The notes under the pieces were generated by a model that was not told where the DNA came from, ran no database searches, and saw nothing but the letters and a program-made list of their open reading frames with translations. 45,777 nt of DNA from Candidatus Doudnabacteria bacterium (GTDB lineage Bacteria > Patescibacteriota > Doudnabacteria > UBA920 > O2-02-FULL-48-8), in contig JACQHB010000005.1 in assembly GCA_016199215.1 (NCBI GenBank), positions 1-45,777 on the forward strand, in the 5' to 3' direction. A program made the translations under genes and the position numbers. Shown piece by piece: positions 3,041 through 45,502 of the stretch. Every line of letters begins with the position of its first letter. Positions within the stretch are counted from its first letter, which is position 1.

Positions 3041-3062
3041 AACAAAATTCTTTATTGGCTGG

Positions 3063-3331
3063 CGTGACCTGACGGTCATCGAACGGTGACCGCGGCGAAG
3101 GGTCAGCGGGAGAATCGGGAGATTCTCGCCGAGCGAACAGAGCGTCAAACGGCGGTCGCAGCGCGTAGCTGACGATCGCGCCCTTGTCCACTTTGAGAAC
3201 ACGATTCGCAGCAGCTGAGAGCGCCGCGCCAGGTCGAGTTGGTCGTACAGCGCGTAGATGTTTGGCGCATACCGTAAAATAGCCAGACCTAGCACACCCG
3301 AGCCGCCGAGCAAGAGAATCTTAGAACCCAT
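3063..3331 (-). pseudogene. Truncated NAD-binding (RmlD/epimerase-like) gene start within the foreign insert
   Basis: MGSKILLLGGSGVLG Rossmann GxxGxxG and 'QLDL', then loss of recognisable similarity. Confidence 0.4.
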
Positions 3332-3905
3332 AGAACCGCCGATACCGAATCTTTGCCCAGATAATGAAAGGCCACAAGTAGAATCTTTCCCCTACTCTAT
3401 ACGCAACGTTGTGTTTCCGATGGTATAGACAATAATTACGCAAATAGATCAGTACGCCGTGAACTCTCCTCTTCAATACCTCGGTACCCATCCGTGACAC
3501 CTGTTCGACAGTAATCCTGCCGTCCTCAACGATGTAGTAGTCCGCGGCAGTCGCACGAACCGAGTAGTCGACGTCGTCGAACCAGTACGGCTCGAACATT
3601 AAGTCTATACCTCCAATACGGTTCCACGCCTCACGGCGATAAATCGACGACCCTCCGTTGGCGTACGAAACCCGCCGCACGCTCCCAGTATTGCTCGACC
3701 CTGGTGAGAATGTTATTGCAAACAGTTTAGGGTCTTCGAACAGTCGCAAGGATTGCTCGAATCCTGAGACCTCGATATCAGAATTCAGGAGCATCACCAG
3801 ATCCGCGCGAGATGTGCGCATAGCCTCCTGCCGGCGACGCAGAAAGTGGGGTTCCAAATTTCCAATCTTACAAATATCGAATGTCATATACATTTCATAA
3901 GTCAC
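3321..3905 (-). CDS. GT2 glycosyltransferase, probably N-terminally truncated
   Basis: LVMLLNSDIEV and IGGIDLMFEPYWFDDVDYSVR; canonical first beta-strand absent. Confidence 0.65.
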   Translation of the reverse strand: MTYEMYMTFDICKIGNLEPHFLRRRQEAMRTSRADLVMLLNSDIEVSGFEQSLRLFEDPKLFAITFSPGSSNTGSVRRVSYANGGSSIYRREAWNRIGGIDLMFEPYWFDDVDYSVRATAADYYIVEDGRITVEQVSRMGTEVLKRRVHGVLIYLRNYCLYHRKHNVAYRVGERFYLWPFIIWAKIRYRRFYGF

Positions 3906-3918
3906 GGGTTAGAAAAAA

Positions 3919-4218
3919 TTAATAAACTCCATTGATGATGGCACCGCTGGTGACCGCTTGCAGGCTATTATAGATGGGGAACGAGCCGTCGGAAGTGATA
4001 GCGGTGATAATTCTGTGCGCATGGCAGTAGTCAGGCGTCAGGGCGCTTTGCTCAGTGTTCCAGAAGTATTTAACATGGCCGTGGAGTGTGTCTTTCACCG
4101 AGGAGAAAAAAGGCACGGCCGTACCGTACCACCATTCTGAATACTCCCAGTTATGGAGTCTCAACAGATCTAGCTTGGCTTGAAAGAAGTCAGCGTCAAG
4201 TCGCATCGCTAAATCCAT
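3919..4218 (-). CDS. Hypothetical protein or gene fragment in the foreign insert
   Basis: 99-aa ORF co-oriented with the GT2; no recognised motif. Confidence 0.35.
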   Translation of the reverse strand: MDLAMRLDADFFQAKLDLLRLHNWEYSEWWYGTAVPFFSSVKDTLHGHVKYFWNTEQSALTPDYCHAHRIITAITSDGSFPIYNSLQAVTSGAIINGVY

Positions 4219-4269
4219 CAGACGCTTGCGTCAGGATCGGCGACAGGTCGTGTTCGAGAATCGCCGTTA

Positions 4270-4344
4270 TGGCTGGGGAGGAAGGATTCGAACCTTCGAA
4301 TGGTGGATTCAGAGTCCACTGCCTTACCGCTTGGCTACTCCCCA
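4270..4344 (-). tRNA. tRNA-Gln (anticodon CTG), CCA encoded
   Basis: Minus strand TGGGGAGTAGCCAAGCGGTAAGGCAGTGGACT-CTG-AATCCACCATTCGAAGGTTCGAATCCTTCCTCCCCAGCCA; 75 nt cloverleaf with GGTTCGAATCC T-arm. Confidence 0.97.
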
Positions 4345-4677
4345 ATGTTTAATTCACAAAAAATTCTTTTAAGCTCTCGCCTGCCCGAACGAGATTTAAA
4401 ATATTTTTCTCTGAATCTAGCGCTCGTCAAATCGTCAAAGCTCTCAGTATATATTAGCTTAAGAGGTCTCCTATTTCTAGTTGATATATTTTTACCCGAG
4501 TTATGCTCCCCTAAACGTCTTGCTAAATTATCTGTTGAACCACAGTAGGTTCGCTTGTCCTTTTCGCTTAAAAGCAAATAAACGTAATACATAAATGTGC
4601 CTTATCCGCCTCGGCTCGACTCACAAAAGCGCTTATCACGAGCCGAGTCGAGACGGGCCGCTTGGCTACTCCCCAAT
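4327..4677. repeat. 20-bp direct repeat CCGCTTGGCTACTCCCCAAT (4327-4346 and 4658-4677) duplicating the tRNA-Gln 5' end
   Basis: Exact match read directly in both positions. Confidence 0.95.
4335..4592 (-). CDS. Small GIY-YIG nuclease (YhbQ/UPF0213-like)
   Basis: YYVYLL...TYCGST.NL.RRL.EHN.G...T..RRP.KLIYTE.F.....AR.RE.YFK. Confidence 0.9.
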   Translation of the reverse strand: MYYVYLLLSEKDKRTYCGSTDNLARRLGEHNSGKNISTRNRRPLKLIYTESFDDLTSARFREKYFKSRSGRRELKRIFCELNIGE

Positions 4678-4684
4678 ATGATTT

Positions 4685-4713
4685 ATTCTACAATTTTTTA
4701 TGATAATTTTCAA
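4685..4713 (-). promoter_or_regulatory. sigma70-type promoter for the GIY-YIG/tRNA-Gln unit
   Basis: TTGAAA-N17-TAGAAT on the minus strand; start site falls just before the upstream tRNA fragment. Confidence 0.75.
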
Positions 4714-4726
4714 TTAAATGAACGAG

Positions 4727-4767
4727 AAGAGGCCGAGCGTCAAGTGTGAACGCTTGGCCTCTTTTTT
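4727..4767. terminator. Intrinsic terminator-like hairpin
   Basis: aagaggccgagcgt / acgcttggcctctt stem followed by T-run. Confidence 0.7.
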
Positions 4768-4771
4768 GTTG

Positions 4772-5119
4772 TCAGATCGCCTTGGCTGGCGCGCGCTGCC
4801 TCGGCTCAATCCAATCTCGCCATACGAGAACGCGGCGAGACCAGTAAACCCAATCCGGTTGCCCAGGGTAGGTCACCAACCTTTCGCCGTCTATCAGATC
4901 AACCATGATTCCGGCAAGCATATAGCCCTTATCGAGCCCGAACGAAAGCCTGGTGCAACCGCAGAAGTTCACGGGCGGTCTTGTCACGCGATACCAGGTC
5001 AGGTTCGAAAGCCGCCAGACCAAGAACAGACGGCTTCCTTCAAATGTCGCCAGCAGGCTCAAGCCGGCAAAGGACACGCAACTGATGCATACGATCACGA
5101 TTGTCTTTCTGATCGACAC
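4772..5119 (-). CDS. Orphan protein with N-terminal hydrophobic segment
   Basis: GTG start with GGAGGG SD, own TTGACC-N17-TAAACT promoter and downstream hairpin. Confidence 0.55.
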   Translation of the reverse strand: MSIRKTIVIVCISCVSFAGLSLLATFEGSRLFLVWRLSNLTWYRVTRPPVNFCGCTRLSFGLDKGYMLAGIMVDLIDGERLVTYPGQPDWVYWSRRVLVWRDWIEPRQRAPAKAI

Positions 5120-5209
5120 GATTCCCTCCGTTTGACGTTGGCAGATTGCTTAAGTTTAACCAATCTGACTGCTTGGGTCAAAGCAGTATTGTTTTGATAT
5201 AATACGGCT

Positions 5210-38902: not shown

Positions 38903-39021
38903 CCCGTTAGAAATTCCAGTTTTAATATTAGCAATCTTGTAATTTTCCATAATGCCCACTAGGATTAGAAAACACCATTCTATTTTTTAATTTTAGGATT
39001 TTTATCTATTTCTAACGGGAT
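38901..39021. repeat. Inverted pair of family B motif, pair 2
   Basis: atcccgttagaaat ... atttctaacgggat; atccat on both outer sides. Confidence 0.85.
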
Positions 39022-43970: not shown

Positions 43971-45389
43971 CTAATAATCCACCTTTGACTTACGGCCCAT
44001 TAGGATCAAGATTGTTTTGAAAATTATGTAAAAATCAAGCCAGATGGACCAGTTTTCGATATAGAAAGAATCAAGGCGGATTTCTTCTTCAAATGAAAGC
44101 TCCGGGTTATAAGCTTGGGTAATCTGGGTCAAGCCTGTTGCGCCTGGCTTAATGATAAAAATTTTCTTGTAATTATCCTGGAATTTTTCCACTTCTTTGA
44201 CCATATGGACCCTAGGGCCAACCAAACTCATCTGCCCCCGCAATATATGCCAAAGCTGGGGAAGCTCGTCGATCTTTGTCCGTCGAATAAATCTTCCCAC
44301 TTTGGTAACCCTCGGATCGTTTTTGATTTTTACAAACGGTCCTTGTCTGGAATTCTGTTTCTCAAGCTCGGCCCGAAGTCTATCCCCACTCTCCGTGCCC
44401 TCGCTCATCTCGTAAAACATTGACCGGAATTTGTAGCATTCAAAAGAGGCTAAGCGGGCGGCCCTTGGCTGATGGAAAAATATCGGCCCCTTTGATTCCA
44501 GTTTAATCGCAATAGCTGTAAGTAATATGATCGGACTTGAAAGAATTAATCCTAGAAGTGAAATAATCACATCCATCAGCCTTTTGATGGCTCTTCCCCA
44601 CCCTTCAAGCGGGGTTCCTTTCAAAACTATGATCGGCATCCCGGAAATCGTTTCGACGCTGACATTGGTGGTGGAAGTTTCAAAAAGGTTCGGGACAAAA
44701 TTGAACCGAATCCCATAATCGCGGCAAAACAGCAGAATCCGCGCGGCGATTTCCTGGTCCAAAAAAGGATCTGCCTGCAGCAGTTCATCTATCCCCGTAT
44801 TAATCCTCAACTCCTCCAACTTCCGAATCAGTTCCTGCGGATCCGTTTGGGAATCAAACAATCCCACCGCTCTGAATCCCGTCTCCGGACGGGACTTTAT
44901 TTGATAAACTAAATCTTCTTTCTTATCCTCACCCACGATTACCGCAAGCCTGTGCAATCCAATCCCTTGTCGCAGCATCTGTACCTGGACTATACGAAGG
45001 ACAATCCTTCCCAGGCTGATGAAAACAATAGTTAGAACCCAAGTCAACAAAATAATAAGCCTGGACGGAAAAACTGTTTGGTTGAAAAAAAACAAAACCA
45101 CCACCAGCAAAAGCGCAGAGGAGGTGGAAAGCGTGATCCTGGAAAGTTCGTGCACGATCCGACGGGTACCTTTGAGATTGTAAAGCCCGGCGATTGCCAG
45201 CAAGCAGATAATTATGGGGCTGACAAGAATCAAAATCCTTAAATAATCAGCAAACAGCAAATTGTAAAGTATTGGCCGGACTTCTTCCAATTCGAAGCGT
45301 AAATAAAAAGCGGCAGTGCCTGCCAGGATTATCATCAAAAAATCCACCACAATCGAGATTAAATTGAAGAGAAGTTCAGAGCGCTTCAT
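43971..45389 (-). CDS. Undecaprenyl-phosphate sugar phosphotransferase (WcaJ/WbaP family)
   Basis: KRLMDV, KFRSM, KNDPRVTKVGRFIR...DELPQLW..L.G.MSLVGPR. Confidence 0.94.
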   Translation of the reverse strand: MKRSELLFNLISIVVDFLMIILAGTAAFYLRFELEEVRPILYNLLFADYLRILILVSPIIICLLAIAGLYNLKGTRRIVHELSRITLSTSSALLLVVVLFFFNQTVFPSRLIILLTWVLTIVFISLGRIVLRIVQVQMLRQGIGLHRLAVIVGEDKKEDLVYQIKSRPETGFRAVGLFDSQTDPQELIRKLEELRINTGIDELLQADPFLDQEIAARILLFCRDYGIRFNFVPNLFETSTTNVSVETISGMPIIVLKGTPLEGWGRAIKRLMDVIISLLGLILSSPIILLTAIAIKLESKGPIFFHQPRAARLASFECYKFRSMFYEMSEGTESGDRLRAELEKQNSRQGPFVKIKNDPRVTKVGRFIRRTKIDELPQLWHILRGQMSLVGPRVHMVKEVEKFQDNYKKIFIIKPGATGLTQITQAYNPELSFEEEIRLDSFYIENWSIWLDFYIIFKTILILMGRKSKVDY

Positions 45390-45502
45390 CCCGTTAAAAA
45401 TTGATTACGCTTAAGAATATGCGTTATTAGCAAAAATCCCGTTTAAGACCATGCATCGCAGGCTTACGCTTTTTATTGAGAATTAGCTATTTCTAACGGG
45501 AT
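45388..45502. repeat. Inverted pair of family B motif, pair 3
   Basis: atcccgttaaaaat ... atttctaacgggat; left arm supplies the ATG. Confidence 0.8.

Follow-up and report, generated by a model that had tools for sequence, protein, structure and literature searches.

How can a nuclease gene come to lie inside a tRNA gene and still be followed by a complete tRNA? This question is raised by a locus in contig JACQHB010000005.1 of Candidatus Doudnabacteria bacterium (Patescibacteriota; assembly GCA_016199215.1), of which positions 1 to 45,777, the whole stretch analysed, are referred to as the window. A small GIY-YIG gene is found there between two copies of the 5' end of tRNA-Gln(CUG), and an earlier note had described it as a minimal homing-like element that targets the 5' ends of tRNA genes. 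The cassette of the window is one member of a large family of cassettes resident in tRNA genes. From the comparative evidence described below, we consider it probable (about 0.58) that it is an evolutionarily mobile, tRNA-Gln-specific unit of a hairpin plus a nuclease, which rebuilds its tRNA and whose nuclease would be directed to single-stranded DNA (ssDNA) or hairpins in the manner of Ssn.

Structure of the tRNA-Gln locus

The assembly containing the window (521 kb in 16 contigs; 79% complete) has 20 tRNA genes. The whole locus is on the minus strand, and the cassette spans 331 bp from one copy of the tRNA-Gln 5' end to the other, in agreement with the size of approximately 330 bp proposed previously. 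Its components are as follows.

4713-4685, minus strand: promoter, TTGAAA-17-TAGAAT, with 10/12 consensus matches
4675-4658, minus strand: stranded left copy (part A), TGGGGAGTAGCCAAGCGG, tRNA-Gln(CUG) nucleotides (nt) 1-18, identical to 4344-4327
4657-4605, minus strand: hairpin H, 53 nt (by folding), in the D-loop of the stranded copy after nt 18
4604-4598, minus strand: part B, TAAGGCA (by sequence), tRNA nt 19-25, the stranded copy resuming after H
4592-4335, minus strand: GIY-YIG open reading frame (ORF), 85 amino acids (aa), a single domain (ORF and Pfam PF01541)
4344-4270, minus strand: right copy, intact tRNA-Gln(CUG) with encoded CCA (ARAGORN; Rfam tRNA model, 68.4 bits, full length)

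The exact direct repeat has a length of 20 nt (4658-4677 and 4327-4346), consisting of two leader bases (4676-4677 and 4345-4346) and tRNA nt 1-18; approximately 1e-5 such repeats are expected within 400 nt in 45.8 kb. The repeat, the ORF and the tRNA were all present as the earlier note had read them, namely, as a GIY-YIG gene inside tRNA-Gln at the D-arm, with the 5' end rebuilt downstream in a complete tRNA that starts with the same 20 bp. The stranded fragment was also present, but its length is 18 nt (4675-4658) and not 17 nt; its assignment to the tRNA 5' end (nt 1-18) holds, while H and the continuation TAAGGCA (nt 19-25) had been overlooked. The -10 element is 9 nt from the stranded fragment, and 9-13 nt from the tRNA in the empty loci of relatives; the promoter does point at the fragment, as had been claimed, and its distance is canonical.

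The GIY-YIG gene starts five bases past part B and has no stop codon of its own: its end reads AAC-ATT-GGG-GAG-TAG into the tRNA, of which nt 1-10 provide the last three codons and the stop codon TAG (4337-4335; nt 8-10). The right copy is the functional tRNA-Gln(CUG). The GIY-YIG gene is the sole ORF inside the 331 bp, in which no tyrosine or serine recombinase was found. The layout is not an assembly artefact because the same anatomy was found in independent assemblies (L068-L072, L148, L192-L200 and L221-L222). A group I intron or other known RNA was rejected: Rfam at E<=1 matched the tRNA alone, and the insertion is in the D-loop with the 5' exon duplicated. A search of the genome contigs for the exact promoter/tRNA junction sequence yielded 0 matches.

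Occupied, empty and relic alleles of tRNA-Gln

The approximately 15 closest cassettes (protein identities of 86, 78, 73, 71, 71, 70 and so on to 61%) are all located at tRNA-Gln, and have the left copy of 18 nt, a homologous H and TAAGGCA. H follows nt 18 in all cassettes of this Gln clade except L197 (nt 11), and most of the ORFs likewise end with ...IGE* on the tRNA. Among sister cassettes, the length of part B ranges from 7 to 28 nt, and its sequence agrees with the local tRNA.

The earlier note had expected empty alleles, and these were found: tRNA-Gln(CUG) is uninterrupted in 21 of 22 related genomes. tRNA-Gln(UUG) is empty in 20 genomes, and in four it holds GIY-YIG genes that belong to a different lineage. 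None of the empty alleles found is from a genome of the same species or genus, and assembly G001 is without the locus. Relics are present at no fewer than four UUG loci.

G017: fragment and hairpin directly abutting the tRNA
G009: fragment with hairpin
G015: fragment without hairpin
G003: 10-nt fragment and hairpin
G021: cassette with a truncated nuclease gene (by eye)

The UUG locus of the window genome itself (C4:17072-17146) is empty. ATTGGGGAGTAG is found 29 nt upstream (region C4:17147-17190), with A at position 6, where the resident UUG tRNA has C, and looks like the scar of a lost cassette.

The closest relative of the window cassette, L068 (84% nucleotide and 86% protein identity), is located at the dnaX-tRNA-Gln(UUG) locus. 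L069 is a cassette at the orthologous CUG locus, and is about as diverged as the flanking gene (nucleotide identities of 78 and 72.7%, respectively), which argues for vertical descent at this locus. In the tree of cassette DNA, the cassettes of the window (CUG) and L068 (UUG) were sisters (99/96) and L069 (CUG) was placed outside them (96/97). Grouping all CUG-located cassettes in one clade was rejected by an approximately unbiased (AU) test (p=0.0012). At least two copying events between the CUG and UUG genes are therefore required, either as new insertions or by conversion between resident cassettes. Two features of L068 do not add to this. The 23-nt leader before its left copy, once regarded as part of the insert, is a longer resident leader that is also present in the empty locus of G010; and the A9/C9 difference is weakened as proof of an imported right 5' end, since both bases occur among the UUG tRNAs of relatives.

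Two further observations concern tRNA-Gln. A Gln-clade cassette was found at a dnaX-tRNA-Gln(UUG) junction, as in the candidate phyla radiation (CPR), in a contig labelled as uncultured Bdellovibrionales (L148; CAZTBI010000001.1); either the cassette was transferred between phyla or the label of the contig is questionable. The conserved motif AGGATTCGAACGGG(T/C)TGAAG(T/C)GAGGCAAG is located 20-60 nt downstream of tRNA-Gln in L043, L050-L053, L070, L192 and L196, and is only weakly present in the window (4240-4262). Its reverse complement resembles a T-arm, so that the motif may mark where a convergent gene for a structured RNA ends, or may be what remains of an antisense tRNA.

Recurrence at other tRNAs and in other genomes

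The window genome has seven small GIY-YIG genes, three of which lie 0-40 nt upstream of a tRNA on the same strand; the chance of such adjacency is approximately 1e-3 per gene (20 tRNA genes in 521 kb). All three have the same layout of tRNA part A, a hairpin and part B, and the two outside the window are as follows.

C1 cassette, tRNA-Ser(GCU): left copy of 35 nt, a 30-nt hairpin in the anticodon loop, then CTAAAC
C6 cassette, tRNA-Ser(CGA): left copy of 72 nt, a 40-nt double hairpin in the T-loop, and a decayed continuation

Among 41 relatives, 12 of 30 GIY-YIG loci had a tRNA within 60 nt downstream. In a wider sample of 120 GIY-YIG loci from metagenomes and species genomes, a tRNA was found directly downstream in 28 and within 300 nt upstream in 34, the latter group including a mirror-image layout with a stranded 3' fragment. 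The recurrence looked for by the earlier note is thus found at many tRNAs and in many genomes: the layout of A, hairpin(s) and B was identified at 13 tRNA types (Gln, Ser, Pro, Glu, Asn, Val, Trp, Met, Lys, Arg, Ala, Tyr and Leu), in Patescibacteria and in Flavobacteriaceae including the cultured Gillisia sp. JM1 (L164). Most breakpoints fell within one of three loops (D, anticodon or T) or at the junction of nt 7-12, and this use of loops at 13 tRNA types suggests the recognition of structure rather than sequence. The earlier view of an element that targets the 5' end in general does not hold, because sister cassettes also interrupt the anticodon loop or the T loop, or lie on the 3' side of their tRNA.

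Of 40 distinct 5'-side cassettes, 14, distributed over five tRNA types, had an ORF that ended on tRNA nt 8-10; most tRNAs have TAG at these positions. In a tree of 134 family proteins, tRNA identity was strongly clustered (44 changes vs 70 in shuffles), and switches between tRNAs were found within well-supported small clades. Full-text literature searches found no description of tRNA-embedded GIY-YIG cassettes.

One related locus may be a fossil of a primary insertion. In L220 (G008:C8:59600-61500), a family-typical tRNA-Gln(UUG) is split in the anticodon loop with both halves kept, in the order of the 5' half, two hairpins, the GIY-YIG gene, a complete tRNA-Gln(UUG), GCCTTT, the same two hairpins and the 3' half. 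The inner tRNA is divergent, with a Glu-like body, and, judging from this arrangement, the incoming unit evidently brought a whole spare tRNA. Both old halves remain because the spare tRNA is too different from the resident gene to recombine. Where the spare and resident tRNAs are alike, recombination would delete the redundant part and give the layout of the window.

Constraint on hairpin H

H has 20 bp including five G.U pairs (z=-4.3), and its folding energy is -28.9 kcal/mol on the sense strand vs -22.9 kcal/mol on the antisense strand. A homologous H was present in every Gln-clade cassette, and the basal stem, CCGTCTCG/CGAGGCGG, was kept across the clade. The short form of H (34 nt) was identical at 34/34 positions in five cassettes, the ORFs of which were only 63-74% identical (41-57% at third codon positions), with synonymous sites that are saturated. 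Since H is identical in these cassettes while third codon positions of the ORF diverge, H is, by sequence comparison, the most constrained part of the element, at the level of sequence and not of structure alone; selection is stronger on H than on the protein. The exact short form occurred three times in 185,579 species genomes, each inside this cassette context, and H is single copy in the 521-kb genome.

In hairpins of stranded tRNA copies, the sense strand was the more stable in 24 of 28 (13 of 16 outside the Gln clade), and G.U pairs were frequent. This bias, together with the breakpoints in loops, fits a single-strand-specific structure, of either the DNA or the transcript.

Several other readings of H were rejected. 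It is not an independent dispersed hairpin repeat (single copy here, and the exact short form elsewhere only in the cassette), and not a terminator (no T-run behind it, and no minus-strand terminator called between the promoter and tRNA). The leader fold does not sequester the start codon. Covariation in the basal stem was likewise not found: the stem is nearly invariant, with only one-sided changes of T.G to C.G. The published SRM pattern of the hairpins that flank Ssn genes, HGTCWYN(0-2)YYVSBRHN(0-5)WNVSBRGN(0-2)RNCYNB, had no match in or around H on either strand, and had three matches in the genome vs 1.2 expected.

GIY-YIG protein

The protein matched Pfam PF01541 with 64.3 bits (cut-off 22.6; E=1.3e-17) at residues 1-71. 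The AlphaFold2 (AF2) model, with a predicted local distance difference test (pLDDT) value of 92.7, contains the elements E2-9, E15-20, H23-32, H36-41, E44-52 and H55-66, that is, the beta-beta-alpha-alpha-beta-alpha core of the GIY-YIG superfamily. Y5, Y16, R26 and E62 were invariant among 44 sequences, and their spacing presumably equals that of Y19, Y29, R39 and E76 in UvrC. Foldseek gave a probability of 1.0 to UPF0213 and Slx1 (template modelling (TM) score of 0.64-0.67 and 28-33% identity for Slx1), and, in the UPF0213/Slx1 comparison, the sequence matched 1ywl and 1zg2 at E values of 7e-7 to 8e-6. The catalytic domain of I-TevI was distant (TM 0.50; 15% identity), and the score for TIGR01453, a family of group I intron endonucleases, was below the threshold (18.6 bits vs a cut-off of 56). 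NCBIfam assigned no family to the 85-aa protein, which stops after the catalytic domain and has no DNA-binding domain. A defence or phage family was rejected, with only weak partial matches to the GIY motif in PADLOC and none in PHROGs.

Between the window and L068, the ratio of nonsynonymous to synonymous substitution rates (dN/dS) was 0.11 with dS of 0.87, which indicates that the protein is under purifying selection; synonymous sites were saturated in most other cassette pairs.

Expression of the locus

The scan for promoters and terminators found, between the tRNA promoter and the tRNA, no terminator and no promoter above a weak 9/12 match, and one transcript of the fragment, the GIY-YIG gene and the tRNA is therefore plausible. 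As read from this arrangement, co-transcription from the tRNA promoter, proposed in the earlier note, is a plausible mode of expression. AAGG of part B is positioned 7 nt ahead of ATG and is probably the ribosome-binding site. If RNase P cleaves at the 5' end of the tRNA, the ORF would lose its last codons together with its stop codon, and the level of the nuclease would thereby be kept low: the full-length protein would be made from unprocessed transcripts only, and processed ones would be non-stop mRNAs. A tmRNA is encoded in the genome.

In folding of whole transcripts, the left fragment paired with the 3' strand of the acceptor (P=0.99; 29 of 31 cassettes). The same pairing was found in 38 of 40 controls with shuffled interiors, and competition of the left fragment for the acceptor 3' strand was accordingly dismissed as a property of the energy model and given no weight.

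Proposed mechanism and alternatives

We propose that the unit consists of the constrained hairpin H, a stand-alone Slx1/UPF0213/Ssn-like GIY-YIG gene and the first part of a tRNA. It would have entered at position 18/19 in the D-loop of tRNA-Gln; the promoter-proximal 18 nt would be the old 5' end, plugged by H, and a working tRNA would be reconstituted downstream, by which an essential single-copy tRNA survives. The cassette would be expressed from the tRNA promoter and its frame closed by U8-A9-G10 of the tRNA. The nuclease may act on ssDNA or hairpin DNA (H, or the folded loops of tRNA genes), as Ssn acts on cognate hairpins, and may provoke a short-homology, recombination-dependent copying rather than cut the duplex tRNA gene. 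Over evolutionary time, this tRNA-Gln-specific lineage has passed from one isoacceptor gene (CUG or UUG) to the other and from genome to genome, and it decays and is lost in some lineages, as in a selfish life cycle.

Several points weigh against this proposal. No recent copy was found, the nearest relative being 86% identical with dS of 0.87, and inheritance at the CUG locus was mostly vertical (78% for the L069 cassette vs 73% for the flank). The interleaving of CUG and UUG cassettes could result from gene conversion between two resident cassettes. H is single copy and does not match the published SRM consensus. The rebuilt tRNA, by its sequence, recreates any target that lies within the tRNA. 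Furthermore, the left copy is identical to the local tRNA (20/20 here, and up to 28/28 after H in L070), which needs gene conversion, selection or turnover, and the model names none of them.

The earlier note had inferred a homing-like element, for which cleavage of the uninterrupted allele would be expected. A classical free-standing enzyme would cut duplex tRNA-Gln near nt 18/19 and be copied by double-strand-break repair, with H destroying the site. The polymorphism of presence and absence at a conserved site, the specificity of the lineage for tRNA-Gln and the position of H exactly at the junction are compatible with this, and a precedent is SegB of T4/T6, a GIY-YIG enzyme that cuts inside tRNA genes and whose gene has microhomology between its 3' end and the tRNA 5' end (PMC2330249; PMC13096335). 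However, an 85-aa catalytic domain alone, nearest in fold and sequence to Slx1/UPF0213 and far from I-TevI (TM 0.5; 15% identity), has no domain for binding such a site; the intact downstream tRNA keeps the whole presumed target; and the sister cassettes are inserted in three different loops (D, anticodon and T) across 13 tRNA types. Homing of this kind is therefore quite unlikely, and a nuclease directed to hairpins or ssDNA appears to be more likely than a classical homing endonuclease. The cassette may instead be a passive hitch-hiker that is spread or simply shuffled by ordinary homologous or homology-facilitated recombination, for example after natural transformation, owing to the cross-species conservation of the tRNA sequence around it. 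Its nuclease would then have a different role for the cell or the cassette, for instance in repair or in controlling incoming ssDNA as Ssn does. In Neisseria, SsnA restricts transformation and does not move DNA (PMC11893778). tRNA-Gln nt 1-25 are identical across the genomes involved, the left copies track the local tRNA, pointing to gene conversion, the left copies at the UUG loci of L059 and L207 differ from the resident tRNA, as if imported, and there are duplications without a GIY-YIG gene (L213 and L215). Nevertheless, the homology beside H is at most 18 nt and approximately 16 nt, which would be short for RecA-dependent exchange; the extreme constraint on H, which is found in the cassette only, suggests a cis-acting site coupled to the nuclease; and the association between the protein family and tRNA breakpoints is far beyond chance. 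We regard passive transport as unlikely.

In a non-mobile host module, the nuclease would be expressed together with the tRNA, and the fragment and hairpin would act as an RNA leader, either by stabilising the mRNA or by competing for the acceptor 3' strand and thus setting how much tRNA is made relative to translatable mRNA. A module of this kind would explain why hairpins are more stable on the sense (RNA) strand (24/28) with many G.U pairs, and why the left copy has tRNA +1 as its first base and does not diverge from the tRNA. AAGG of part B 7 nt before ATG, vertical inheritance at the CUG locus since the split from L069, and the pairing predicted between the left fragment and the acceptor 3' strand (P=0.99) are also in line with it, although this pairing is generic (38/40 transcripts with shuffled interiors). 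Such a module is very unlikely in view of the patchy distribution (1/22 CUG loci occupied), the relics and the truncated gene, the switching of loci, the multiple unrelated GIY-YIG lineages at tRNA-Gln, and the sister lineages with inverted-repeat boundaries and identical copies in different gene contexts. In the opposite direction, the cassettes might form a class of autonomous mobile elements of approximately 330 bp, with a hairpin and a minimal GIY-YIG gene but no transposase or recombinase, among the smallest known; this is possible but doubtful. In such a class, a structure-specific nuclease would have two targets, namely, the constrained hairpin of its own element and the loops that are exposed when a tRNA gene folds as ssDNA. 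The element would insert at such loops, bring the displaced tRNA part or a whole spare tRNA (as in G008), by which an essential single-copy gene survives, and borrow the promoter and stop codon (tRNA U8-A9-G10) from the target.

Comparison with known systems

Apart from Ssn, no stand-alone GIY-YIG proteins of this size have been characterised. Ssn bind their cognate hairpin in its ssDNA form and cleave a few nt upstream of it; their genes are typically flanked by this hairpin, and an IS-like layout, NTS-ssnA-NTS, has been remarked for SsnA of Neisseria meningitidis (PMC11893778). The cassette shares with them a single GIY-YIG domain of about 90 aa (approximately 90-100 aa in Ssn and 85 aa here), a sequence-constrained hairpin beside the gene and a sense-strand-specific structure. 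It differs in that H is off the published SRM pattern and single copy, vs tens to hundreds of dispersed copies for Ssn, and in that the cassette lies within a tRNA gene whose end has been rebuilt; PMC11893778 makes no mention of tRNA. By analogy, the cassette may be said to work like the pair of Ssn and its hairpin, but it is not filed as a member of Ssn because H is off the SRM pattern and not dispersed.

In the case of SegB, repeat units of tRNA plus nuclease arise when the 3' end of segB recombines with the 5' end of a tRNA gene (PMC2330249; PMC13096335). Common to both are a GIY-YIG gene among or next to tRNA genes and, for SegB, cleavage inside them. SegB, however, is a multi-domain, duplex-cutting phage enzyme encoded between tRNA genes, whereas the cassette has a bare 85-aa domain, is in a cellular genome and inside a tRNA gene, and has a conserved hairpin and a duplicated 5' part of the tRNA. 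The best matches of the cassette protein in sequence and fold were Slx1 and UPF0213 (YhbQ-type). Slx1 requires Slx4 and has a RING/PHD domain. To our knowledge, UPF0213 proteins are encoded by housekeeping-type single genes without an associated hairpin or tRNA embedding.

Prophages and islands with tyrosine integrases enter tRNA genes, bring a replacement tRNA part and leave a partial tRNA repeat at the far end. As in the cassette, the displaced part of the tRNA is replaced and the tRNA stays functional. These islands, however, duplicate the 3' part, encode a recombinase and are kilobases long, whereas the cassette has 331 bp and no recombinase and rebuilds the 5' part (the 3' part in sister lineages). 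The mORFs of fungal mitochondria (for example, at atp6 of Allomyces macrogynus) place an endonuclease ORF at the end of a host gene, together with a foreign copy of the end that was displaced, and leave a stranded remnant; they differ in a protein-coding host gene of an organelle, the lack of a hairpin and full-length endonucleases. IS200/IS605 and REP/RAYT recognise hairpins on one DNA strand and, like the cassette, are very small, and the cassette insertions prefer the loops of foldable sequence; those systems use a HUH Y1 transposase rather than GIY-YIG, have sub-terminal hairpins at both ends and do not rebuild the target. Their hairpin-guided single-strand transposition is discussed in PMC11893778.

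Other GIY-YIG lineages and flanking sequence

Other GIY-YIG lineages of the window genome behave like mobile DNA. The gene at C4:86928-87202 is bounded by perfect 15-bp inverted repeats (ATCCCGTTAGAGACA), the right one of which encodes the C-terminus, ...SLTG*; relatives G008, G009, G010 and G013 have the same ...LTG* ending. The core of these repeats also brackets the short elements described below. The lineage of the C5 gene (C5:10004) is bounded by repeats, CCCAGTAAT...ACTGGG. In the metagenome contigs L224-L233, an identical 94-aa GIY-YIG protein of this lineage is encoded by a gene that is bounded by CCCAGTAATTCAACTTC/GAAGTTGAATTAACTGGG and placed precisely at the start codon (ATG) of its downstream neighbour. 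The neighbouring genes differ (GGDEF or a 5'-3' exonuclease upstream, and EamA or a 110-aa ORF downstream); this is either a recent multi-copy insertion or a set of chimeric contigs induced by the repeat. A third GIY-YIG gene (C4:10228-10443) has an NTS-like element (ATTCCCG...CGGGAAT) approximately 90 nt upstream.

As separate observations, hairpins resembling NTS/dRS3 of Neisseria, TGTCATTCCCG...CGGGAATCCAG, are located at C4:10444-10559, C11:15440 and C12:20692; the published Ssn-related motif is matched by two of them, and the third is the one approximately 90 nt upstream of a GIY-YIG gene. A family of short elements (34-117 nt; at least 11 members) with variable interiors is bracketed by inverted repeats with the core CCCGTTAGAAAT/ATTTCTAACGGG, including those at 38903-39019, 34815 and 45388-45502 of the window. 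The tRNA locus is flanked by GC-rich stretches (3056-4269 and 4714-5200; 50-60% vs approximately 40% around), containing only ORFs without Pfam matches, among them an apparent truncated GT2 glycosyltransferase (3321-3905). A bidirectional terminator-like hairpin is located at 4727-4763. The window and L069 differ between the common flanking gene and the cassette.

Significance

If the cassette is moved by its own 85-aa nuclease and hairpin, it would represent a compact selfish route into essential genes without the death of the host, and would explain the multi-copy genes for "GIY-YIG nuclease family protein" in streamlined CPR genomes (seven in 521 kb). The hairpin-nuclease principle of Ssn would then extend from dispersed repeats to tRNA genes, and pairs of H and its nuclease would be candidates for new ssDNA cutters with specificity for both sequence and structure. 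For annotation, the cassettes explain many of the "tRNA fragments", pseudo-tRNAs and ORFs overlapping tRNAs in metagenome-assembled genomes. Since the layout is also found in cultured Flavobacteriaceae (Gillisia sp. JM1; L164), a system that can be tested at the bench exists. These cassettes form a widespread family of selfish-looking elements in tRNA genes.

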